64,000 nt of DNA from Methanobacterium sp. (GCF_038562635.1 NZ_JBCFBO010000001.1:1736192-1800191); one strand, 5' to 3'; shown: positions 4,514 through 63,868, counted from the stretch's first letter. The notes: generated by a model not told the origin, from the letters alone. Translations and numbers: made by a program.

Positions 4514-4523
4514 ATTTTAACCT

Positions 4524-4733
4524 CCAAAAAATTTTATTTTTTGGGCCCTCGAAATCCTCAAAAATCGATGAATTTCGATTTTTGGGAGTTAGAAAAATGC
4601 AAGGCATTTTTCTAAAATTCAGAGAATTTCGGGGCATGTGAAAATCACAGATTTTCACGGTTGCAAAACTGAAAGTTTTGCAAACATCAAAACGAAGTTT
4701 TGAATGTTTCGGAAAATTCAAAATGAATTTTCC
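4524..4733. repeat. A/T-tract mini-hairpin array (about 8 hairpins)
   Basis: Members include CCAAAAAA-tttta-TTTTTTGG (4524-4544), AGAAAAATGC-aag-GCATTTTTCT (4591-4613), GTGAAAAT-cacag-ATTTTCAC (4638-4658), GCAAAACT-gaa-AGTTTTGC (4663-4681) and GGAAAATTC-aaaat-GAATTTTCC (4711-4733). The array abuts the stop codon (4734-4736) of the cysteine desulfurase gene. Confidence 0.9.
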
Positions 4734-5942
4734 TCAAACTCCTGCGAATTTAGATATTTCTTCAACAGTTTCTGTTAATATATCAATCTCTTCTTTAGTA
4801 TTATAATAATGAACCGATGCTCTAACAGTTCCACCAAGTTTATCCGCACCTATATGTTTTATTGCAGGAATTGCGCAGTGATAACCGCTCCTTACACATA
4901 TATCTTTAAGTTCATCCAGTATTTTAGCAACATCATGAGAATTCATACTTTCCACATTGAAAGCAACTATTCCATGAATATTATCTGGATTACCATAACA
5001 TATTGTATTATCTATGCTATTAATCGCGTCAAACATATATTTTGTAAGTTTTGCGCTGTGTTTTTCAATATTCTCAATTCCAACATTTTCCACATAATTT
5101 ATAGCCGCTCCAAGACCAATGACACCAGCTATATTTTGAGTGCCTCCCTCAAATCTACCTGGAGCAGATTCAAGCGTAAAATCATCTTCTGTAACCTTTG
5201 ATACTGTTCCACCGCCGAGATTAACTGGTTTTAATTTATCCATAACATCGCTTTTGGAATATAAAAATCCAGTCCCAACAGGACCAAAAAGACCTTTATG
5301 TCCTGGAAATGAAACAAAATCTGCCTTTGTTTCTTTTACATCAAATTTTACATGTCCTGCAGATTGTGCGGCGTCAACAAGATATAAAATATCGTTTTCT
5401 TCTGCTATATCCCCAATATCATAGATAGGCTGGCATGAACCAATTGAATTTGAGATATGAGTAGTCGTGATGAGCTTTGTAGTATCATCTACAGCTTTTT
5501 CAATATCCCCAATGTCTATTACGCCATATTTATCTGTTTTTATGACTTTAAGATTAACTCCTGCTTTTTTCAAATTGAGCCATGGCAGAAAATTAGAATG
5601 GTGTTCTATATTGGGAACAATTATTGAATCACCCTTCTTAAATTCCAGGCTGTTTGCTACAAGATTTATAGCTTCAGTGGTGTTTTTTGTAAATATAACC
5701 TCATTTCTATTACAGTTTATAAATTTTGCAATTCTTTCCCTTGTATTTTCAAATTTCATTGTTGCTTTAACTGCTGTTTTATAGGCACCCCTTCCTATAT
5801 TAGCATTGAAATTATGAAAATAATCGCACATTGCATTTACTACAGGCTCTGGAGTTGGAGTAGTGCTTGCAGCGTCCAAATAGATTACTTCATTAAGTAA
5901 AGGAATATCCGATCTGATATCAATATTTTGAGTATTTTCCAT
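4734..5942 (-). CDS. Cysteine desulfurase (class V aminotransferase, SufS/CsdA-like)
   Basis: 402 aa with YLDAASTTP, the PLP-Lys region SFPGHKGLFGP, and a C-terminal active-site loop RSGYHCA. Confidence 0.85.
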   Translation of the reverse strand: MENTQNIDIRSDIPLLNEVIYLDAASTTPTPEPVVNAMCDYFHNFNANIGRGAYKTAVKATMKFENTRERIAKFINCNRNEVIFTKNTTEAINLVANSLEFKKGDSIIVPNIEHHSNFLPWLNLKKAGVNLKVIKTDKYGVIDIGDIEKAVDDTTKLITTTHISNSIGSCQPIYDIGDIAEENDILYLVDAAQSAGHVKFDVKETKADFVSFPGHKGLFGPVGTGFLYSKSDVMDKLKPVNLGGGTVSKVTEDDFTLESAPGRFEGGTQNIAGVIGLGAAINYVENVGIENIEKHSAKLTKYMFDAINSIDNTICYGNPDNIHGIVAFNVESMNSHDVAKILDELKDICVRSGYHCAIPAIKHIGADKLGGTVRASVHYYNTKEEIDILTETVEEISKFAGV

Positions 5943-5997
5943 GAAATACGCTCCTAATTAATTTTAAGTCTATTTGAACCCAGTATAAAGTTACAAC

Positions 5998-6987
5998 TTA
6001 TTTTTCCTCTATTTTTCTTCTAATTTCACTGGCCATTTCCATGGTAGATGCATTTCCACCAATATCCCCAGTTACAACTTTACCTTCACTTAAAACTTCA
6101 ACCAGTGCATTTTCAACTGTACGGGCTGCACCATGTTCTTTAAGGTAATCAAGCATCATTACTGCAGATAATATCATTGCAGAAGGATTTGCAATATTTT
6201 TTCCAGCAATATCTGGCGCGGATCCGTGCACTGGTTCAAATAAACCACTATTTTCTCCGATATTAGCAGATGGTATTAAACCAAGACCACCAACAAGTCC
6301 TGCACCCTCATCTGAAAGTATATCTCCAAATAAATTTGTAGTAACGATCACATTAAACATTTGAGGGTTTGTAATGAAAAACATTGCTGTTGCATCAACA
6401 TAACGATCATCGGTTTCAATATCTTTATAATCTTCAGCAACTTTGTAAAAAATGTCTTTAAATAATCCATCTGTTTTTTTAAGTACATTTGCCTTGTGAA
6501 CTGCTGTAACTTTATTTCTGCCATTTTCTTCAGCATAATCAAATGCAAACTTGCAAATTCTTTCTACAGCATTTCTTGTGGTAACTCTTAAAGCAGTGGC
6601 TCCCTCTTCTGTTTCTTCTTCAAGCCCAATATAGAGATCTTCTGTGTTTTCCCTAACAATTACAAAATCTAAATTGTCAAACAAAGCTTTAGTGCCAGGG
6701 TATGATTTAACAGGCCTTAAATTAACGTAAAGCTCAAGTTCCTGTCTTAATCTGACAATAACATCCGCTGCTGATTCTCCAGCAGCACCAAACAGACATG
6801 CCTGCGATTCTTTTACTATATCAATTGTTTCTTCAGGTAAAGGAACTCCTGAGACTGCTTTGCATTCATCTCCTGCGTCTGCAAATGTGTAATCAAATTC
6901 AACTTCAAGTGCATCTAAAACATGTAATGCTGCTTCCATAACTTCTTTTCCGATACCGTCTCCAGGTACCACCGCTATTTTGTACAT
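5998..6987 (-). CDS. 3-isopropylmalate / homoisocitrate dehydrogenase family (LeuB or AksF)
   Basis: 329 aa with MYKIAVVPGDGIGKEV, NLFGDILSDEGAGLVGGLGL and HGSAPDIAGK. LeuB and AksF cannot be told apart by eye. Confidence 0.85.
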   Translation of the reverse strand: MYKIAVVPGDGIGKEVMEAALHVLDALEVEFDYTFADAGDECKAVSGVPLPEETIDIVKESQACLFGAAGESAADVIVRLRQELELYVNLRPVKSYPGTKALFDNLDFVIVRENTEDLYIGLEEETEEGATALRVTTRNAVERICKFAFDYAEENGRNKVTAVHKANVLKKTDGLFKDIFYKVAEDYKDIETDDRYVDATAMFFITNPQMFNVIVTTNLFGDILSDEGAGLVGGLGLIPSANIGENSGLFEPVHGSAPDIAGKNIANPSAMILSAVMMLDYLKEHGAARTVENALVEVLSEGKVVTGDIGGNASTMEMASEIRRKIEEK

Positions 6988-10401: not shown

Positions 10402-10455
10402 CAAAAAATCTATTCAGATTTTTTGGGCGCTTGAAAAATGTTATACATTTTTCAA
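10402..10455. repeat. A/T-tract mini-hairpin pair
   Basis: CAAAAAATC-tattca-GATTTTTTG (10402-10425) and TTGAAAAATG-ttata-CATTTTTCAA (10431-10455), located between rpa and radA. Confidence 0.85.
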
Positions 10456-21107: not shown

Positions 21108-21898
21108 ATGGACTACAATGAACTTGGAAATAAATTAAAGGAAATCTTGAAATTAAAAAATGATCCAGTTGCCATAAAATGGTCTGTAAAAGAACCAAGA
21201 GATATTGAAAAGGAAGAAGGTAAATCTAGATTTTCTACCAAACTTACGAAAATCGTAGATTTTCGTGCCAACGAAACCATCGGTTTCGTGGCCCCAAACC
21301 TTTGCATTTGAGGGCTCCAAAAATTCTATGAATTTTTGAGAGCTAGACAAAGCTATGCACGGCGAAACTTTCTATGCAACTGCTGAAGAAGAGGAATGTA
21401 TGGGTGGTGCAAGATATTCGGGACTTAAAGACCCAAAGGAATTCCCTGCAAACATGCAAAGTGGTGCATTTTTAGTTCCAATGGGAGTTTACAAGAATAT
21501 ACCTGCAGTTCAACGTTCGTGGAAAAATAATTTGAATGTAGAATGCGGGATTTTTAACGCCGTTATCTTTGCCCCCCCCCCCTTGTAAATGCAGAATTTG
21601 AACTGACGTGATATTTGTAGTCTGCAATGCAAAACAGGGGATGGAAATACTCCATGCAAATGCGTATGATTCGGGTGCACATGGCTTAGGTGCTGATTCA
21701 GGACCAATATGCAGCTCAATGGCCGCAGTTCCTTATATGACTGGAAAGGTCACCTACGGTTTTGGAGATGTGGGTTCCAGACAGCATATGGATATTAACC
21801 CAGAAGATATTATGGTTGCTATTCCTGCAAGTGAATTTTCCCGTATAATATCCAACTTAGAAGAAATGAGAACCAAAAAATTCTTTAAGGAAAGGTGA
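21108..21898 (+). pseudogene. DUF169 family gene, disrupted by a 100-nt hairpin-array insertion and two frameshifts
   Basis: Three consecutive ORF fragments (21108-21311, 21355-21588, 21608-21898) together read as one DUF169-like protein: ...KSRFST / ELDKAMHGETFYATAEEEECMGGARYSGL...VIFAP / LVNAEFE / DVIFVVCNAKQGMEILHANAYDSG... Confidence 0.8.
21240..21339. mobile_element. 100-nt A/T-tract mini-hairpin array inserted in the DUF169 coding sequence (MITE-like behaviour)
   Basis: CGAAAATC-gta-GATTTTCG (21247-21265), ACGAAACC-atc-GGTTTCGT (21271-21289) and CAAAAATTC-tat-GAATTTTTG (21318-21338). Deleting 21240-21339 restores the reading frame between fragments 1 and 2. Boundaries are good to within a few nt. 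Confidence 0.6.
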
Positions 21899-22220
21899 TA
21901 TTAATTTATTCGCTCATGTCCAAGTCTGTGTACATTTATAATTCATGCTATAACTGGTTAATTTAAATTAAAAATTTCAAGATGTCAACCCATTTGTTTT
22001 GTGAACATTCAAAACATGAGCGAATTTATTTTACATTCTTAATTTATCCAGACACTTTTAATTTTGCAGAATTCAGTTTTTTAAGAAAAATCATAGAACT
22101 ATTTCAATAAAAATCAGAATTTTCAGTGATTAAGTAGTCATTTTTGAAAGTATTTATACTCATTTATTTTATACATAGTTATGTAAAGCTACTTAATTTA
22201 CATTTACTCGGAGGCAATCA

Positions 22221-23570: not shown

Positions 23571-23858
23571 GGCGCGCCAAACACGAAGTGTTTGAGGGCT
23601 TTTTTCATAAAAAAAGCCGTCAAAAAATCTTCGATTTTTTGGGCCGCGAATCGAAGATTCGCCGGGATTGATCAAAAAAATCCCTCGAAAATCTTAGCTT
23701 GCAAAATTTTTAATTTTGCAGCCCCAAAATTCTACGAATTTTGAGGGATTTTCGGGGCATGTGAAAATTTTCAATTTTCACGGTTGCGAAATTTCATTTC
23801 GCAAACATCAAAAACCTTTGTTTTTTGAAGGCCTCGCGAAAAAACTCTGTTTTTTCGC
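23571..23858. repeat. A/T-tract mini-hairpin array (about 11 hairpins)
   Basis: Examples are CAAAAAATC-ttc-GATTTTTTG, GCGAATC-gaa-GATTCGC, GCAAAATT-ttt-AATTTTGC (23701-23719), GTGAAAAT-tttca-ATTTTCAC (23761-23781), GCGAAAT-ttc-ATTTCGC (23786-23802) and GCGAAAAAAC-tct-GTTTTTTCGC (23836-23858). Confidence 0.9.
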
Positions 23859-24783: not shown

Positions 24784-25049
24784 ACAGAAAGTAAAAATAA
24801 TAAGTCCACTAAACCTTTATTTTTCCTACAGGATTTAATAAAGAACCATTCAGATTAAAAATATTAATTTTTATTACATTTCTTTTCCAAATATTACAAC
24901 ATATGGAACGCTCACACCCCGAATGTTGTGCAAACAATATCGCTTCATTTTCGTGTGTCACTGTTAATTAAATTGCATTTTTTTAAGATAAATCCCCTAT
25001 AATCAATTAAACTACAATTTAACATAAAGTATAACTAATGCACAGGATC

Positions 25050-25200
25050 ATGGACATGTAAAAATCGCAATTTTTACGGTCACCAAAACCTTCGAAAACT
25101 GTTAAATCTTCGATTTGACGTATCGAAAATTGTAAATTTTCGAATGCTTTGTTTTCGAGGTTCCAAAAATCTCCGATTTTTGAAGACTGTCGGTTTTTGT
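25050..25200. repeat. A/T-tract mini-hairpin array (about 5 hairpins)
   Basis: GTAAAAAT-cgca-ATTTTTAC (25058-25077), CGAAAATT-gta-AATTTTCG and CAAAAATC-tcc-GATTTTTG (25164-25182). Confidence 0.85.
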
Positions 25201-25237
25201 GAACATGAGCGTTAGAAACTTTTAAGAGGGTATCAAT

Positions 25238-28510: not shown

Positions 28511-31303
28511 TTGAAAAGGCAACTATTAATTTTAATTATTTTTTCTATATTAGCCTTGATAACGTGTGAAACAGCTTCAGCATCACCCGATTTAGCGGTA
28601 ACTTCTGTAAATGTGACAAGTAATGTTTCACCAGGCAGTACAGTAACAATAAATGATACTGTGACTAATCAAGGTGATCAAGCAGCAGATGGATTCACTG
28701 TAGGCTATTACATACAGGATGAATATGCTGTAGTTAAAAAACCTGCTAGTCAGCGTAATGCATCTATTTATGGAGATAAAGTAGTCTGGTCTGATTACAG
28801 ATATGATCGGCAGGAAAGTGATCTTTACTATAAAAATATTACAGGTACAGAAGACGGAGTTATTTATACTCCAGGTGATCAACTTAATCCTGCAATTTAT
28901 GGAGATGTAATTGTATGGCAGGAAAATTTGTCCTGGTTAGGTAATTCTCATTGGCAAATTCTGGGTTATAATATTCCAGGTAGAGATGATCCAATTAATG
29001 ATAGTATATACCTATTATACAACACAACTTCTGATCAGATCAATCCATCAATATATCAGGATAAAATAGTCTGGCAGCAGCAGAGATCAGACGGAAGCTG
29101 GGACATATATTTATATGACTTCCCAATCACAGACGATATCGCGATGCCCAAAGAGAAATGGATTACGCGAATAACTAAAGACGGTGCTAATCACATTAAT
29201 CCGTATGTTAATGGAAATTACATTGTATGGCAGCAAGATAATGGAGACGGCATCTGGAATATATACACATATGATCTTTCTACAGGAGATATAAATCGAG
29301 TATGTCAATCTTCAGAAAACCAGACTAATCCTGCGCTTTATGGAGATAACGTTGTCTGGCAGCAGTATAACACAACCAGTAAAAACTGGGACATATACAT
29401 GTATGATCTTTCCGCAGATGAAGAAACCCAAATAACCCATAATACATCCAACCATATTAATCCTGCAATTTACGGGGATAAGATAGTGTGGCAGGACAAC
29501 AGGAACGGGAACTGGGACATATACATGTACGATTTAACTCTTGGAATTGAAAGGCAGTTAACTATAGACAAAGGGAACCAGATAAACCCTGCAATATATG
29601 ATAATAAAGTTGTTTGGACTGATGATAGAAACAGTAATGAAGACATCTACATGACAGATGACCTCACATTAGCACCAGAATATACTCGTTACGTTTCAGG
29701 TCTAGCAGCAGGAAAATCAGATAGTGCACTGACAAATATAACTTTACCATCGGATTTAAAAGCAAACGTCAATTATTACATACTAGTTATGGCAGATGCA
29801 GCGTACGATAACAGCGTTTCTGAATCTAACGAAAATAATAATATAAAATTCAGCGGTGCAATGATTGTACCTGATGCCGACCTCACAATGCCTTCAGTAT
29901 CTGGGCCTGCTACAGCTCAAACAGGCGGATCAATGGTAGTAGTAAATACTGTGAAAAATATAGGGACCAAAAACTCAAATCCATTCCATGTCTATTTCTA
30001 TCTCTCAAAAGACGGCACTACATTAAATACCAAGATTGGATCTAGATTTGTTTCAGGAGGTCTCAAAGCAGGTGCATCAAACACTGCATACACAAATCTT
30101 ACAATTCCATCCAATATCTTTGGAAGCTATTATATTGTAGCAGTAGTTGATCCTCTAAATAAAACATGTGAAACAAATAAATTAAACAATATTGTGGCTT
30201 CTTCAACCACTACAAATATATGTGCTCCAGATCTTGTTATTACATCAATAAGCACAGGAACAACCACATACAAAAGAGGAGACAAAATAACCATCCAAAA
30301 CACAGTAAAAAACCAGGGAAGCTCCACATCAAAAGGTTTCTATGTTAACTTCTATCTCTCAAATGACAGCACTATTACCACATCTGACACCTACCTAGGA
30401 CAAAGATACATATCAGGAGGTCTCAACGCGGGCATATCAAATACAGAATACACAAACTTTACAATCCCATATGATGCGTCTGGAAATTACTATATCGGGG
30501 CGATAGTTGACTCAACTAACACCGTATTTGAATCAGACGAATCAAACAATATAAAAGCATTCTCAACTACCATAGAGGTATGTTCACCTGATCTTGTTAT
30601 TACATCAATAAGCACCGGGACAACCACATACAAAAGAGGAGACAAAATAACCATCCAAAACACAGTGAAAAACCAGGGGAAAATTGCATCAGGAGGATTT
30701 TATGTCAATTTCTATCTCTCAAATGACAGCAACATTACCACATCTGACACCTACCTAGGACAAAGATATATATCAGGTCTCAATGCAGGTGCATCAAATA
30801 CAACAACCACAAGCTTTACAGTCCCATCCAGCCTATCTGGAAACTATTATATTGGGGCGATAGTTGACTCAACCAACGCAGTTTTTGAATCAGACGAATC
30901 AAACAATATAGCGACCTATTCAAACACTATAAATGTAGTCCTTCCTGATCTTGTAGCTTCATCAGTAAGTGCAGGATCAACTTCGTACAGAAGAGGCAGC
31001 AAAATGACTATTAAAAACACAGTGAAAAACCAGGGAAAAGTTTCATCCGGAGGATTTTATGTCAAAATTTACATCTACCGAAGCTATAAAGGCAAAATAA
31101 CTTCCATATACCTTGGTAGACGATACATTAGCTCACTTAAAGCAGGGGCATCAAATACAGCGTACACTAAATTAACTATACCTTCAACTATAGCAAAAGG
31201 ACTTTACTACTGCAAGATGGTAGTCGATACAGAAAACAAGGTATCAGAGTCCAGCAAATCAAACAATGTGATTAGCAGCGGAACATGGGTGAATATATTT
31301 TAA
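28511..31303 (+). CDS. Secreted surface protein: CARDB domain, beta-propeller repeats, then five CARDB-like repeats
   Basis: 930 aa with the signal peptide MKRQLLILIIFSILALITCETASA. About 8 blades carry NPAIYGDK(I/V)VWQ...WDIY(M/L)YDL. PDL(V/A)(I/V)TS...TV(K/T)NQG units are characteristic of CARDB. TTG start. Confidence 0.75.
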   Translation: MKRQLLILIIFSILALITCETASASPDLAVTSVNVTSNVSPGSTVTINDTVTNQGDQAADGFTVGYYIQDEYAVVKKPASQRNASIYGDKVVWSDYRYDRQESDLYYKNITGTEDGVIYTPGDQLNPAIYGDVIVWQENLSWLGNSHWQILGYNIPGRDDPINDSIYLLYNTTSDQINPSIYQDKIVWQQQRSDGSWDIYLYDFPITDDIAMPKEKWITRITKDGANHINPYVNGNYIVWQQDNGDGIWNIYTYDLSTGDINRVCQSSENQTNPALYGDNVVWQQYNTTSKNWDIYMYDLSADEETQITHNTSNHINPAIYGDKIVWQDNRNGNWDIYMYDLTLGIERQLTIDKGNQINPAIYDNKVVWTDDRNSNEDIYMTDDLTLAPEYTRYVSGLAAGKSDSALTNITLPSDLKANVNYYILVMADAAYDNSVSESNENNNIKFSGAMIVPDADLTMPSVSGPATAQTGGSMVVVNTVKNIGTKNSNPFHVYFYLSKDGTTLNTKIGSRFVSGGLKAGASNTAYTNLTIPSNIFGSYYIVAVVDPLNKTCETNKLNNIVASSTTTNICAPDLVITSISTGTTTYKRGDKITIQNTVKNQGSSTSKGFYVNFYLSNDSTITTSDTYLGQRYISGGLNAGISNTEYTNFTIPYDASGNYYIGAIVDSTNTVFESDESNNIKAFSTTIEVCSPDLVITSISTGTTTYKRGDKITIQNTVKNQGKIASGGFYVNFYLSNDSNITTSDTYLGQRYISGLNAGASNTTTTSFTVPSSLSGNYYIGAIVDSTNAVFESDESNNIATYSNTINVVLPDLVASSVSAGSTSYRRGSKMTIKNTVKNQGKVSSGGFYVKIYIYRSYKGKITSIYLGRRYISSLKAGASNTAYTKLTIPSTIAKGLYYCKMVVDTENKVSESSKSNNVISSGTWVNIF
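30228..30947 (+). repeat. Tandem 360-bp coding repeat (two CARDB units) with near-identical cores
   Basis: 30230-30318 versus 30590-30678 shows about 3 mismatches in 89 nt, and 30349-30415 versus 30709-30775 is similarly close. The offset is exactly 360 nt. Confidence 0.85.
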
Positions 31304-35130: not shown

Positions 35131-35159
35131 TAAAATATTAAAGTGTTTTTGATCAACCG

Positions 35160-35264
35160 CTCAAAAATTCGTAGAATTTTTGGCCCCCCGAAAATCCCTC
35201 AAAATTCGTAGAATTTTGGGGCATCGAAAATTTTTAATTTTCGAAAGCTATGATTTTCGAGGGC
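35160..35264. repeat. A/T-tract mini-hairpin array (about 4 hairpins)
   Basis: CAAAAATTC-gta-GAATTTTTG (35162-35182), CCCTCAAAATTC-gta-GAATTTTGGGG (35196-35221) and CGAAAATT-ttt-AATTTTCG (35225-35243). Confidence 0.9.
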
Positions 35265-43339: not shown

Positions 43340-43860
43340 CCTTAAAAACTGTTAAAATCCCTTAAAATCTGTGATTTTGGGGATCCTCAAACGCGAAGCA
43401 TTCAAAAATCTCTGATTTTTGATGCGTCAAAATTCTTATAATTTTGACAGCGTTTGGGACATGTGAAAACCTTTGGTTTTCACGGTTGCGGAACATTAAA
43501 AAATCTCCGATTTTTTATGCAACGAAAAATGCAAAGCATGCAAACACTTCGTGTTTGCTGTTACAAAATCGTAGATTTTGTAAACATTTTTCTCCTGCTT
43601 TGTTCTGCAAACATCGGAAATCTTGATTTCCAAATGTTCGAAAAATCTTTTTGATTTTCTCAACCTCAAAAAATTTTTTATTTTTTTGGGCCGTCGAACA
43701 CATGGTGTTCGGGCCCTACAAATCTTTGATTTGTGGCCAAGGAAACATAGTTTCCTACGGCTTAGAAATCAGAGCAGTCGAAAATTCATAGAATTTTCGT
43801 CGCGTCAAAATTTTCAATTTTGACAGATTTCGAAAGGTTCAAAAAATTCATAGAATTTTC
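43340..43860. repeat. Largest A/T-tract mini-hairpin array (about 18-20 hairpins, about 520 bp)
   Basis: TCAAAAATC-tct-GATTTTTGA (43402-43422), GTCAAAATT-cttat-AATTTTGAC (43426-43448), GTGAAAAC-ctttg-GTTTTCAC (43463-43483), GCAAACAC-ttc-GTGTTTGC (43540-43558), TACAAAATC-gta-GATTTTGTA (43562-43582), GGAAAC-ata-GTTTCC (43741-43755), CGAAAATTC-ata-GAATTTTCG (43779-43799) and GTCAAAAT-tttca-ATTTTGAC (43804-43824). Confidence 0.9.
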
Positions 43861-44884: not shown

Positions 44885-45298
44885 TTAAAATTGCTCCAAA
44901 TAATTTTCTACTATGGCATCAACTATACACGGCGCATTCCATCCTATGATATCTGCAGCAGCTTCTTCAAGCTCAGGAGGTACATTTTCCATACCGTAAG
45001 GCCTGATGACAATTATGGGCTTTTCTAATTTATTTGAAATGTCTATTTGCTTCTTTATAATATCTTTATACTTATTGTATAGCCCTGAAAGAATTATTAC
45101 AACTCCTACAGGCATTATCTGTTCTTGAAGCTCTTCTCCAGTGATCTTATCTTTTTCAAGTATCCCATAGTTTTTAAACTCAAAATCATGTGCTGCTGCC
45201 AATTTCTCAGTAAACGTGTTATATTCTTCCTCATTTTGACCTATATGGCTTATAAATATATTATATAATCTTGATTCTGATTCAAACATTTCATCCAC
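44885..45298 (-). CDS. TIR-like domain protein (DUF1863 / MTH538 / ThsB-like)
   Basis: 137 aa with YNIFISHIGQNEEEYNTFTEKL..FEFKNYG...VVIILSGLY...KPIIVIRPYG...IIGWN. This matches my memory of the MTH538-type TIR-like fold family. Confidence 0.5.
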   Translation of the reverse strand: MDEMFESESRLYNIFISHIGQNEEEYNTFTEKLAAAHDFEFKNYGILEKDKITGEELQEQIMPVGVVIILSGLYNKYKDIIKKQIDISNKLEKPIIVIRPYGMENVPPELEEAAADIIGWNAPCIVDAIVENYLEQF

Positions 45299-45476: not shown

Positions 45477-46106
45477 TTATACAATTAAATAATTATATCC
45501 ATAAGCTCTGTAAGGAACTGTTTTCCATTTTCCGTTTTGGTATAGTTGAACTGATCTGTGTCTGCTGGAATAACTTGTCGCGTATTGAATTACTCTTGAT
45601 TTGTAGCCTGCAGCTTTGAATTTATTGTTTAAATATGCACTGTATGCCCAACAATCACCTGCATGGTATTTAACTAAGCCAGAAGCAGTACTAACTCCAC
45701 TTCGGTAGCCGTATCCTGCAGCTGATTTCATAATTGAGTTTAATTTTGGGTCGCTGAATGTATCTGCTTTACCGCTTGAGGTATAAGATGAACTACTGGA
45801 ACTTGATGCTGCTTTAACTGTACTGGTTTTGTATTTATAATAATATTTCCAGGTATACTTCCAAGTGTACTTCCATGTATAGTACCATCTACCGTGGGAT
45901 TTATACCAATGTTTATACCAGTGTTTGTACCAGTGCTTATACCATACTTTAACTTTTACACTGGACGCTGCATTCACTTTCAAAACGTCTGTGTGTTCGT
46001 TTAGACCAATTTGAGCATTATCATCCGATGCACTTTGGTCCGATGCCCCCACCGCAGAGGGCAAAATGCTTATTGCCATAGCTATTGCTATTAGCAAAGC
46101 ATACAT
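45477..46106 (-). CDS. Secreted protein with a W/Y/K/H tandem-repeat segment and a transglutaminase-like Cys-His core
   Basis: 209 aa. Hydrophobic N-terminus ending AVGA; (WYKH)x3-WYKS and (KYTW)x3 at aa 55-93; a poly-Ser linker; C-terminal YHAGDCWAYSAYLNNKFKAAGYKSRV...RHRSVQLY resembling a transglutaminase core. Confidence 0.5.
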   Translation of the reverse strand: MYALLIAIAMAISILPSAVGASDQSASDDNAQIGLNEHTDVLKVNAASSVKVKVWYKHWYKHWYKHWYKSHGRWYYTWKYTWKYTWKYYYKYKTSTVKAASSSSSSSYTSSGKADTFSDPKLNSIMKSAAGYGYRSGVSTASGLVKYHAGDCWAYSAYLNNKFKAAGYKSRVIQYATSYSSRHRSVQLYQNGKWKTVPYRAYGYNYLIV

Positions 46107-61682: not shown

Positions 61683-62378
61683 TCATTTATAAAGAATTTC
61701 CATGATTTTATCCGTGTTTTTAAAGTTTTCTACAACGTAATCTGCCCCACAATCCACTAATTCTTTAACACTGTACATTCCAGTAGCCACTGCTATAGTT
61801 TTAAGGTTATATGCTTGAGCTGCTTCTACATCACGAGGAGTATCTCCCACGACAAAAATTTTATCCCCCTTAAATCCAAACTGGTTTTTTGCAATGTTTA
61901 AAGCTTTTTTAACCATTAATGAACGGTCAGCGTTGTCGCTTCCAAAACCTCCAAATGAGAAGTAACTATCAAGACCTGCCCTTCCTAGTTTAGCGTGGGC
62001 TATAGGCTCTAAATTTCCTGTTACTAATCCTAAAAGCACATTTTTGCGCTGGAGCTCCTCTAAAAGTTCAACAGTTCCCTCAAATACATGTATATCTTCA
62101 CACTGTACATTTTTCAGGTAGTAATCAGCCATGAAATCCAAACAGTTTTGGAAATCTTTCTGGATTTCTGCTGTAGTTAATCCCCCTAATGTTAATATTT
62201 CCTGTAAAATTAGTTTATCACTTTTACCTGCGGCGTTTACACTGTGTACATAATCTTCCATGCCGTAAAATTTCTTAACACCTTCTATATAAGCTTTATA
62301 ATGACATTCCGCTCCCTGAACTAATGTTCCATCGATATCAAACAGCATTAAAATATTATTTTGAACCATTGTTACCAT
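61683..62378 (-). CDS. HAD superfamily hydrolase (phosphoglycolate phosphatase-like)
   Basis: 231 aa with LFDIDGTL, LVTGN and VVGDTPRDVEAA. Confidence 0.8.
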   Translation of the reverse strand: MVTMVQNNILMLFDIDGTLVQGAECHYKAYIEGVKKFYGMEDYVHSVNAAGKSDKLILQEILTLGGLTTAEIQKDFQNCLDFMADYYLKNVQCEDIHVFEGTVELLEELQRKNVLLGLVTGNLEPIAHAKLGRAGLDSYFSFGGFGSDNADRSLMVKKALNIAKNQFGFKGDKIFVVGDTPRDVEAAQAYNLKTIAVATGMYSVKELVDCGADYVVENFKNTDKIMEILYK

Positions 62379-62647
62379 CTATAATTTTTTAACTTTTGAG
62401 ATGAATTATAATTTTCAACTTAATATAGTCAACCCACCACTTCAGCCATCTTTTTAAATTCAATTATTTAAAGTTCATTTTTGATAATTAACCCTATAAA
62501 TATGATTTAAGAAGATATAGGAATATTAAAAGCAGATCAAAGGAAATTTAATGATGTATATAGTCAAATAAATTTTATTTAACGCTCCTGTCCATTATTA
62601 TGTGCATGGTTTATACTTCATTAACATGTTATATTGAAAAAAAACAA

Positions 62648-62675
62648 AGCTTGCAAAAACTATGTTTTTGCAGCT
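62648..62675. repeat. Solitary A/T-tract mini-hairpin
   Basis: AGCT-t-GCAAAAAC-tat-GTTTTTGC-AGCT, downstream of the small rubredoxin gene. Coordinates are good to +/-1. Confidence 0.7.
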
Positions 62676-62771
62676 ATTTAAAATAGTTAAGAAAATTCCC
62701 CAATATTAAAAAAAACAAGTAATTTTTAGTGAATTATAAAAAAATCAGGTTTTGAAATTTCCGTGGAGCCA

Positions 62772-63005
62772 TTATTTCTTTAATTCTTGAATGAATATAC
62801 TGCTTATTAAAGACATAATTCGGCCATTTTCATGATAATTTAGTTTTTTATTTTCCAGAGGGTAAAAATAATTTTTTTCTATGCCGCATACAGGGCAAAC
62901 CCAATCTGATGGAAGATCCTCTAAATCAGTCCCTGTTTCAATTCCATTTTCAGGATCTCCATTAGCTGGATCGTAAATATAACTGCATACATCACATTTA
63001 TACAT
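62772..63005 (-). CDS. Rubredoxin with a short non-homologous tail (paralog of the N-terminus of 56509-57117)
   Basis: [54 protein letters not shown] followed by a 23-aa tail. Confidence 0.8.
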
Positions 63006-63029
63006 TTATATCACCCGAATAAGGAGGGA

Positions 63030-63405
63030 ATGAGAGAATAAGACAGAAGCGGTAGTCTCATTTATTATTTCTCTCATGAATTTGAAATTGTGTAAGGAGA
63101 GATATAAACCCTCGAAAATCTTTCAAAATTTCGATTTAAAAGATTTTCTGGGCCCTCAAAATTCATAGAATTTTGAGCAACAAGGAACGGAGGCGGTATT
63201 GTCCTCATTAACATCTCTCCATAACTTTAATTATGTGATAGAGATTAAGTCTATGCAATATGCTCTTGATTTAATCTCTCAATGAATTAAGCAGCGGAGA
63301 GAACTTAGATGAAGGGTGGTAGGTTAATTATCGTACAGTATCTCTCCACAAAGTTAATTCAATTAAATAAGGGAGAGAAATAGGTGATCTTTAAGAATCT
63401 CTCCC
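63030..63405. repeat. Tandem array of five hairpins sharing a GGAGAGA/TCTCTCC stem
   Basis: U1 ATGAGAGAA(63030-38)/TTCTCTCAT(63069-77). U2 GGAGAGAT(63096-103)/ATCTCTCC(63213-220). U3 AGAGATTAA(63240-48)/TTAATCTCT(63271-79). U4 GGAGAGA(63296-302)/TCTCTCC(63341-47). U5 GGGAGAGA(63371-78)/TCTCTCCC(63398-405). The tails after each stem are similar (CATGAATTTGAAATTGTG, CATAACTTTAATTATGTG, CACAAAGTTAATTCAATT). Confidence 0.8.
63109..63178. mobile_element. A/T-tract mini-hairpin pair nested in the loop of unit U2 of the GGAGAGA array
   Basis: GAAAATCTT(63114-122)/AAGATTTTC(63140-148) and CTCAAAATTC-ata-GAATTTTGAG (63155-63177). U2's remaining loop (GGAACGGAGGCGGTATTGTCCTCATTA) is homologous to U1's loop (AGACAGAAGCGGTAGTCTCATTTATTA), so this 70-nt block looks inserted. 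Confidence 0.6.
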
Positions 63406-63448
63406 AATTTTGGCATGAGGGAATTGATGATAAACTGAAGCACATAGT

Positions 63449-63868
63449 TTATTTAAAATATCTTTCTAAAATTCCCTCTAGCATTTTAGCATGGCGGCCT
63501 TCATCCCTTGAGCTTTCATCAAAGAAATCATGAGCCGGGTCAATATCACACTCTTTAGCTTTTTTAGCTGCGGCTTTCTTTTCATTGTTAGCCATTGTTT
63601 CACCATTTAACATCATTTCAATGTTTTCTTTGAGGGAAGGCTTAATAATTCCACCAAGTTCTGCAAAATGGGAAGCGTGGTTAGCTTCATCCAGTGCAAT
63701 TCTTGTCAAGACTTCGCCTACTTCTGGAAGGCCGTCTCTTTGTGCCTGGCGGGCCATAGCCAGGTACATTCCTACTTCCTGGCATTCTCCGTTAAAATTG
63801 GCCTGAACTGCTTCTTCTATATCTGTGTTTTTACAAATTCCAATTTCGTGTTCGTTTATTATTTCCAT
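63449..63868 (-). CDS. Rubrerythrin-like ferritin-fold diiron protein (no rubredoxin domain)
   Basis: 139 aa with [30 protein letters not shown] and [10 protein letters not shown] (paired E...ExxH motifs). Confidence 0.8.

Follow-up and report, generated by a model that had tools for sequence, protein, structure and literature searches.

Why does one short hairpin recur at several places of an archaeal chromosome, and why are substitutions in one arm of its stem matched by substitutions in the other? These questions are raised by 64,000 nucleotides of Methanobacterium chromosomal DNA (NZ_JBCFBO010000001.1, 1736192-1800191; hereafter the window, meaning this whole stretch), with a G+C content of approximately 34%. 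The window is 99.99% identical to an ENA contig (ERZ27275380 k141_3117) and 99.7-99.9% identical to a 3.1-Mb JGI contig (L001; L numbers denote the loci compared). Archaeal housekeeping genes in it encode RPA, RadA, IleRS, PurL, the archaeal SAM synthetase and an HdrA-like protein, and no tRNA or tmRNA genes are found in the window.

A preliminary description of this DNA reported the hairpin GGGGCATGTGAAAAT-cacag-ATTTTCACGGTTGC at positions 4631-4664 and the same two arms around another loop, tttca, at 23754-23787, together with two copies in which both arms had changed: GTGAAAAC/GTTTTCAC at 43456-43489, where T to C on the left is matched by A to G on the right, and GTAAAAAT/ATTTTTAC at 25052-25084, where G to A is matched by C to T. 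Re-reading of the sequence confirms the four hairpins and both paired changes, but the extent of the stem has to be redefined, being 9 bp if the loop is 3 nt (GTGAAAATC-aca-GATTTTCAC). The pattern CATGTRAAAAY-N3-9-RTTTTYACGGT has four matches in the window (starts 4635, 23758, 25055 and 43460, all on the + strand), and 0.00 are expected from 100 dinucleotide shuffles of it. When the four copies are aligned, the common core is only about 30 nt, GGrCATGT[G/A]AAAA[T/C]-loop-[A/G]TTTT[C/T]ACGGTyrC, and their flanks are non-homologous, yet rich in other hairpins.

Perfect hairpins with a stem of at least 8 bp number 51 in the window, against 8.2 in local shuffles. An A-run in the 5' arm is seen in 42 of them, and the loops are mostly 3 nt. 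Intergenic DNA has about 3 such hairpins per kb, coding DNA 0.06. In related loci, 0.57 Mb altogether, hundreds of hairpins have the core ..AAAATC-NNN-GATTTT.. in common, with variable outer pairs. Tandem Repeats Finder does not detect the arrays that such hairpins form, because the units are too diverse.

A unit of two hairpins

The recurring hairpin is the first half (H1) of a two-hairpin unit of approximately 52 nt, with the layout CATG-H1-CGG-H2-A, followed by CAT[C/G]. A second self-complementary hairpin had already been noticed at 4663-4681 and 23786-23802, both times followed by the spacer AAACATCAAAA, and it is present there as described. It is, however, not confined to these two best copies, since the copies at 25052 and 43456 also have one, the arms of which are about 100 nt apart with more hairpins nested in the loop. 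What had been missed is that the hairpin is half of a 52-nt mobile unit, that the arrays are nested insertions and that the family is found in two archaeal phyla. Each unit consists of two different hairpins side by side in one orientation, not of inverted doublets. The hairpins are subterminal at both ends, with only 1-4 nt outside each, and there are no terminal inverted repeats. CATG on the 5' side of H1 and CGG on its 3' side are kept in both host lineages, a conservation partly imposed by the search pattern.

The limits of the unit are apparent from its surroundings: units are 90-100% identical over 52 nt, whereas identity in the flanks is only 20-57%, apart from one side of one pair with 88%. 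For example, the window unit at 4635 has 98% identity to units in two loci of Methanobacterium MBAC-LM (L025 and L035) with unrelated flanks. With a covariance model of the unit, about 15 pair units in the window score as significant, one of them a diverged form at 707-758 on the - strand. A clean pair of sites is provided by paralogues of a miniature element (MITE) also present in the window, in which the empty form GGACATG|AGCG (L098) corresponds to the filled form GGACATG[TAAAAATCGCAGATTTTTACGGTCACAAAAACCGAAGTTTTTGTGAACATG]AGCG with 51 nt inserted (L083 and L104). In 22 comparisons of filled and empty sites, the two differ by about 50 nt or multiples, and the inserts are mostly 45-54 nt, which is two hairpins, the others being 63, 67, 95 and 103 nt. 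Four independent H1-H2 insertions with different left flanks start with CATG and are followed by CA(T), and the same start and end pattern is shown by a CAT-led variant unit nested in array A4 (see below). Read on the reverse strand, the unit lies 3' of NATG (five independent sites) and itself ends with CATG, although a duplication of 3-4 nt would look alike. Junction microhomology in these comparisons varies between 0 and 5 nt. Pairs of hairpins with other types of sequence have different junctions and share no termini.

The units choose particular places. When empty sites were folded, 15 of 17 insertion junctions lay outside the stems, 5 in loops and 10 in linkers, against a background of 48% of positions (p = 7e-4). 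Since insertion goes into loops and linkers, arrays become nested.

Nested arrays in the window

The arrays and units of the window are as follows.

707-758, - strand: diverged two-hairpin unit, ACAT-ATGAAAAT..ATTTTCAT-TG-TAAAAAATT..AATTTTTTA-ACAT (covariance model, 46 bits)
4522-4525: CTCC, left copy of a 4-nt direct repeat around array A1 (right copy at 4739-4742)
4526-4738: array A1, 213 nt with 9 hairpins, holding copy 1; an insertion present or absent by strain
4546-4634: host hairpin H0, CCCTCGAAAT ... TCAGAGAATTTCGGGG, interrupted at 4556-4618 by a nested pair of hairpins of 63 nt (sequence and fold)
4635-4688, + strand: unit copy 1, made of CATG, H1 at 4638-4658 (GTGAAAATC-aca-GATTTTCAC), GG, H2 at 4661-4683 (TTGCAAAACT-gaa-AGTTTTGCAA) and ACATC (covariance model, 67.5 bits)
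10402-10455: hairpin pair between the RPA and RadA genes
21246-21338, 35146-35244 and 62652-62672: further small arrays
23578-23858: array A2, between the serine hydroxymethyltransferase and flavoprotein genes
23758-23809, + strand: unit copy 2, made of CATG, H1 at 23761-23781, GG, H2 at 23784-23804 and ACATC (covariance model, 78.8 bits)
24909-25211: an older, different MITE with terminal inverted repeats CGCTCAC.../...CATGAGCG, copy 3 sitting in its right end (paralogues L083 and L104 filled, L098 empty)
25055-25207, + strand: unit copy 3, made of CATG, H1 at 25058-25077, GG, H2 arms at 25080-25090 and 25192-25202, and ACATG
43364-43859: array A4, about 500 nt, between the divergent ABC-ATPase and msrA genes
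43385-43459: host hairpin CAAACGC...GCGTTTG immediately before copy 4, its loop containing two hairpins (fold)
43460-43615, + strand: unit copy 4, made of CATG, H1 at 43463-43483, GG, H2 with its arms at 43486-43494 and 43602-43610, 107 nt apart, and ACATC
63109-63183: 75-nt two-hairpin insertion near the rubrerythrin gene, present or absent among genomes

Array A1, folded as single-stranded DNA, reaches -62.9 kcal/mol (z = -11.7). The arms of its host hairpin H0, upstream of the copy at 4631, can also be read as CCCTCGAAAT...ATTTCGGGG, and in L098 the same hairpin is found in an unsplit form (CCCTCGAAATTCATAGAATTTCGGGG). Copy 3 combines two kinds of element, a MITE with an inserted unit; its H1 has 8 bp and a 4-nt loop after a 1-nt deletion, and its H2 is split by 101 nt of nested hairpins. 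Inside the insert of copy 4, a host hairpin at 43524-43592 (GAAAAATG..CATTTTTC) is itself split by the CAT-led unit at 43537-43584, and the single-stranded fold at copy 4 recovers this nested structure (z = -9.7). An array of about 270 nt occupies the site of the diverged unit at 707-758 in Methanobacterium MBAC-AD2. These modules explain why intergenic regions in a group of Methanobacterium genomes are unusually long and filled with hairpins.

Recent mobility among strains

Mobility of the module is recent. Array A1 is absent in strain L141, the ribH protein of which is identical and the flanking DNA near-identical in alignment, and also in the more distant MBAC-AD2 (L051). Since both are empty, A1 is an insertion in the lineage of the window. 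The empty site reads TTCGCAGGAG|GTTAAAAT, and the filled site has GGAG on both sides of the 213 nt. A class-V aminotransferase gene (4734-5942) and a 28-codon membrane-like ORF downstream of it (start near 4517, - strand) once abutted, and A1 puts 213 nt more between them. The insertion rewrote the end of the aminotransferase gene, its last two codons and stop changing from …A G G stop to …A G V stop, and it kept the ribosome-binding site of the small gene, the GGAG of which is now duplicated. Arrays located in operons and promoter regions, one of which altered a coding sequence in this manner, may affect gene expression.

Other sites behave similarly. The spacer between the ABC-ATPase and msrA genes holds a different array in strains L133 and L136, about 190 nt instead of the roughly 500 nt of the window, between near-identical flanks; this shorter array contains an H1 split by two nested hairpins. 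Downstream of msrA, an array is present in strains L133 and L137 and none in the window. Of 10 genomes with an identical rubrerythrin protein, 6 have the 75-nt pair at 63109-63183 and 4 lack it. Since arrays differ between strains of near-identical flanking DNA, they could be used as strain markers.

Changes in the two arms are coupled

The preliminary description took the paired changes as an argument against simple drift, to be abandoned if a larger alignment had unpaired single-arm substitutions as often as paired ones. Paired changes clearly outnumber single-arm changes in 38 distinct H1 and 25 distinct H2 sequences, so that the argument holds. In 76 copies from Methanobacterium, position 2 of the H1 stem is G-C in 37, A-T in 37 and unpaired in 2, and position 7 is T-A in 59, C-G in 16 and T-G in 1. 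Among the 38 distinct H1 sequences, 98.5% of cells pair and all three variable pairs change in both arms, with 38 double-change, 3 wobble and 5 unpaired cells. Shuffles give 13.1±3.9 double changes and reached 38 in 0 of 500, and pairing is destroyed when the partner column is slid. As most loci were picked for a perfect H1 match, invariant positions of H1 are uninformative.

H2 lies outside the search pattern and is therefore an independent test of covariation. All nine pairs form in 37 of 75 units, with 27 different arm sequences, and shuffles almost never reach 8. In the 25 distinct H2 sequences, which were chosen by their flanks and not by pairing, six of nine pairs change in both arms (46 double-change, 1 wobble and 12 unpaired cells); the shuffled expectation is 14.5±2.9 double changes, and 46 was again reached in 0 of 500. 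Wobble cells are 3 of 342 in H1 and 1 of 225 in H2. Even an insertion can be compensated, as seen in orthologous H2 hairpins of L065 and L074 that differ by an insertion in both arms. Comparison of orthologous arrays between species gave only 13 usable hairpins, because arrays turn over too fast.

The palindromic core of these hairpins might suggest that they are arrays of double-stranded DNA binding sites for a dimeric regulator or a chromatin protein. However, a dimer would drive both half-sites to one consensus and does not predict matched G-to-A and C-to-T changes of the arms at every variable position, and the 50-nt insertions, the nesting and the strain polymorphism have no explanation in terms of binding sites. 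We consider it very improbable that the hairpins are of this kind.

Pairing is maintained at the level of DNA

If the folding of RNA were selected, the hairpins would terminate transcription, protect the 3' ends of mRNA or be small RNAs. Oligo-T is a termination signal in archaea, and runs of T4-6 are found in the 3' arms on both strands. Most arrays lie between tandem genes and fold very stably, but the hairpin density is lowest, not highest, between convergent genes. With respect to flanking genes, the module is in the sense orientation in 18 cases and antisense in 24; divergent gene pairs surround it in 11 cases and convergent pairs in 7. Moreover, G·U pairs are nearly absent in the covariation, and there is no wobble excess on the sense strand: in tandem intergenic regions, single mismatches of this strand are of the G:U type in 31 and of the A:C type in 26 hairpins. 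No Rfam family is matched in the whole window at gathering scores, and in E-value mode nothing appears below E = 0.1 in two array regions. The presence or absence of whole arrays among near-identical strains is also against a role of RNA, and such a role seems unlikely to us.

Loops speak in the same direction. Within identical stems and flanks of fixed orientation, a loop triplet and its reverse complement are about equally common. In Methanobacterium the counts are 9:13 for GAA/TTC, 7:7 for AAA/TTT, 5:3 for GTA/TAC, 2:3 for ATA/TAT and 2:3 for GCA/TGC, and in Candidatus Methanolliviera, a second host, they are 4:8 for GAA/TTC, 3:3 for AGA/TCT and 5:2 for AAA/TTT. Loops can flip in this way only if copying or recombination crosses a DNA hairpin in its folded state, and this process would also transfer a change from one arm to the other. 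Resident copies, on the other hand, decay in place, as exemplified by the 1-nt deletion in the window H1 at 25058-25077, by an A:C mismatch in L125 and by T:G mismatches that differ between strains. Because resident copies decay, pairing is enforced during copying rather than by any function at the site. The process takes place on DNA and not on RNA. The preliminary description had left two choices, selection on the hairpin or a self-templated copying mechanism, and the evidence favours hairpin-mediated copying of DNA, since pairs are of the Watson-Crick type only, loops flip, orientation is independent of genes and there is no G:U-type excess on the sense strand. Apparent compensatory evolution can thus stem from DNA copying rather than from selection on an RNA fold, which calls for caution in covariation-based searches for RNA genes.

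Host range

Hosts were scanned with one genome per species, and both the host list and the copy numbers are lower bounds. Among the matches listed, the module occurs many times in the Methanobacterium species and MAGs MBAC-LM, MBAC-AD1, MBAC-AD2, UBA8, UBA44, ACI-7, M. oryzae and the OH_CBB/OH_CDB MAGs. The complete MBAC-LM genome has at least 18 copies, 9 on each strand among the matches listed, with no block pattern and no obvious replication bias in this small sample. The location of all four window copies on the + strand was accordingly rejected as a sign of a general strand bias.

At least 25 copies are found in three MAGs of Ca. Methanolliviera, an oil-degrading archaeon unrelated to Methanobacterium. 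The layout is the same as in Methanobacterium, H0-CATG-H1-CGG-H2-GCAT-H3, although the G+C content of the module loci is 42.8% in Methanolliviera versus 32.7% in Methanobacterium. One 26-nt H1 and its linkers are thus conserved across two archaeal phyla, and their identity in phyla of differing G+C content points to a sequence-specific, transferable element.

Bacterial matches of the module pattern were rejected as isolated chance matches, and so were four matches in viral contigs, all by chance and without arrays. On a contig labelled as a Bacillota MAG (L062, JAEZGY010000069.1, OH_CDB_116), a module of the usual Methanobacterium style is flanked by hairpins. The OH_CDB Methanobacteriota MAGs stem from the same study as this contig, so that its label probably reflects an error of binning and not a bacterial host.

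How are the units copied and moved?

We tentatively favour a reading in which the hairpin belongs, as one of two halves, to a mobile DNA module of about 50 nt that is selfish and non-coding, is copied while single-stranded and folded, and is moved in trans by an enzyme that recognises hairpins. The module and its sister hairpin pairs (core AAAATC-NNN-GATTTT) would insert into intergenic DNA, preferably at spots that are single-stranded in folded DNA, i.e., hairpin loops and linkers between hairpins, and successive insertions would build the nested arrays. Copying would go through the single-stranded, folded module, and TnpA of IS200/IS605 and the REP-associated Y1 (HUH) enzymes may serve as a working model for the putative enzyme acting in trans. 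Pairing would be preserved for two reasons. First, only copies that fold would propagate. Second, synthesis across a folded hairpin would template one arm from the other and flip the loop. An enzyme acting on folded single strands is favoured by the two hairpins, which are the minimal substrate of such enzymes, by the discrete ends, by apparent insertion adjacent to a motif resembling the unit's own end, by the single-stranded targets and by the conservation of H1 and linkers in two phyla.

Several points count against an enzyme. It would be unusual for one IS200-type enzyme to recognise so many stems; the junctions are variable, other pair types have no common termini, and no strand bias is seen in the MBAC-LM sample. 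A transposase is also missing from the DNA searched: Pfam applied to essentially every ORF of the window finds none, and a regular-expression search for HUH...Y motifs finds no Y1/HUH motif in 1078 ORFs of about 0.73 Mb of related loci. Neither a RAYT-like gene nor a cognate tnpA/tnpB element sharing the ends of the module was found in the window and these 0.73 Mb. When ORFs of 93 archaeal loci were clustered and the top clusters examined with Pfam, no module-linked gene emerged, only housekeeping or common families.

The main rival, and a serious one, is DNA-level copying without a dedicated enzyme, which we judge somewhat unlikely. Hairpins would stall replication, and the nascent strand would switch template. 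A switch within the hairpin would perfect the stem and flip the loop. If 2-5 nt of microhomology in the linkers (CAT, GGAG) led the strand into another array, copying of at least one period and return would insert units, and the step of about 50 nt would be the spacing of conserved CAT linkers. The short, variable microhomology of 0-5 nt at junctions agrees with this, as do the loop flips with perfect Watson-Crick stems, the compensated two-arm insertion in the orthologous H2 of L065 and L074, the swapping of whole arrays between near-identical flanks and the failure to find a transposase. However, insert sizes and ends are sharp even at non-array sites, e.g., inside the end of a MITE, and template switching does not account well for a 26-nt H1 conserved with its linkers over two phyla. 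The family is also restricted to some lineages, yet replication slippage is universal.

If an enzyme moves the units, they would reveal an archaeal, hairpin-specific system for single-stranded DNA with a minimal substrate of about 50 nt, which is of interest for mobile DNA and as a possible tool. If there is no enzyme, the arrays are a natural record of template switching in archaeal replication. With still more reserve than for the enzyme as such, we propose as a possibility that Methanobacteriales and Methanoliparia harbour an undescribed class of ultra-small (about 50 nt) two-hairpin mobile modules. Such modules would integrate into single-stranded loops and linkers of their own arrays ('Russian-doll' DNA), fold-back copying would flip loops and make arm changes look compensatory, and the hairpin-specific enzyme system would be shared horizontally.

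Comparison with known elements

The module is closest in kind to REP/BIME/REPIN sequences and to gene-less elements derived from IS200/IS605, and it is a member of neither. REP, BIME and REPIN of proteobacteria, which depend on RAYT/TnpA-REP Y1 HUH enzymes, resemble it as short, many-copy, intergenic, non-coding palindromes in mosaics, and module hairpins are likewise short, many-copy palindromes located almost only between genes. In both, stems vary yet stay paired, and a short unpaired motif stands at the foot of the hairpin, GTAG in REP and, with a conservation partly imposed by the search pattern, CATG/CGG in the module. However, a REPIN is an inverted REP doublet forming one long hairpin, whereas the module is a tandem pair of different hairpins. 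Unlike REP, module units insert in the loops of earlier units, their loops flip, and no RAYT-like gene was found in the sampled DNA. The target is shared with IS1397 and ISKpn1, which insert into loops of REP palindromes; these are full-size, transposase-encoding elements, while the module is a pair of small palindromes.

Elements of the IS200/IS605 family also transpose with a preference for single-stranded targets, as in IS608, and gene-less derivatives of the family are known from haloarchaea as PATEs. Like them, the module has hairpins at both ends, neither terminal inverted repeats nor a fixed target duplication, and seems to insert by a short motif resembling its own end (NATG/CATG on the reverse strand). 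Unlike them, it is only about 50 nt, has just two hairpins and very diverse stems, and shows neither a cognate tnpA/tnpB in the sampled DNA nor a detected strand bias. Classical MITEs are similarly small, non-coding, intergenic and strain-variable, but their terminal inverted repeats and fixed-length duplication are missing in the module, in which junction repeats are 0-5 nt.

One arm of a hairpin templates the other in quasipalindrome template switches, in loop inversions of chloroplast hairpins and in the terminal flip/flop of parvoviruses. Simultaneous two-arm changes and loops in both orientations are common to these phenomena and the module. They are local and mutational or replicative, whereas the module forms a family of defined units, dispersed by insertion at new sites. 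Assignment of the module to an Rfam family or to intrinsic terminators was rejected (no match in the window, no fixed orientation and almost no G·U pairs in the covariation).

Tandem units of two hairpins, nesting of the element in its own loops and flipping of loops are not known as features of the REP or IS200/IS605 families. Searches of the full-text literature gave no description of such arrays, and the two-hairpin element appears to be undescribed in archaea so far. A 2018 survey found only the classical IS200-type subclass among archaeal Y1 enzymes and no REP-associated ones (PMC6006769).

Other features of the window and related loci

Some observations concern neighbouring genes and elements. 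In MBAC-LM locus L097, paralogous ORFs of 74 and 94 aa (5814-6038 and 6402-6686) lie between two inverted copies of the module; they belong to no obvious family and are not transposase-like. The tetranucleotide CTAG is markedly scarce in the window (47 observed versus 100 expected from trinucleotides), and other 4-base palindromes are near expectation. A restriction-modification link at CATG was considered and rejected, as CATG is not avoided (observed/expected 1.06).

A classical MITE of 112 nt at 21911-22022 ends in terminal inverted repeats that match perfectly over 8 bp, CGCTCATG/CATGAGCG, and is bordered by a target duplication of 8 bp, AATTTATT, at 21903-21910 and 22023-22030. L002-L004 and L006 share it with the window, whereas L005 lacks it, as does the JGI contig, which is otherwise 99.7-99.9% identical. 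The element at 24909-25211, upstream of the LigD-phosphoesterase gene, is its older relative of about 300 nt with the same ends.

Gene content also varies. The spacer between the rubrerythrin and HAD genes (62378-63449; L144-L153) includes a short rubredoxin gene that some strains have intact (73-107 aa), whereas elsewhere it is truncated or partly deleted (39-40 aa) or missing; the rubrerythrin protein is identical throughout. A 930-aa protein with five CARDB domains is encoded at 28511-31303, and its gene contains 2.5 copies of a 357-nt tandem repeat at 30180-31065 with 80% matches, as expected for a variable cell-surface protein. Finally, a small protein with a Thoeris ThsB-like TIR domain (PF08937, E = 1.4e-8) is encoded at 44885-45298 on the - strand, adjoining the gene of a 209-aa protein without a Pfam match (45477-46106). 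The surrounding intergenic DNA differs among strains, and the two may be a defence gene pair.
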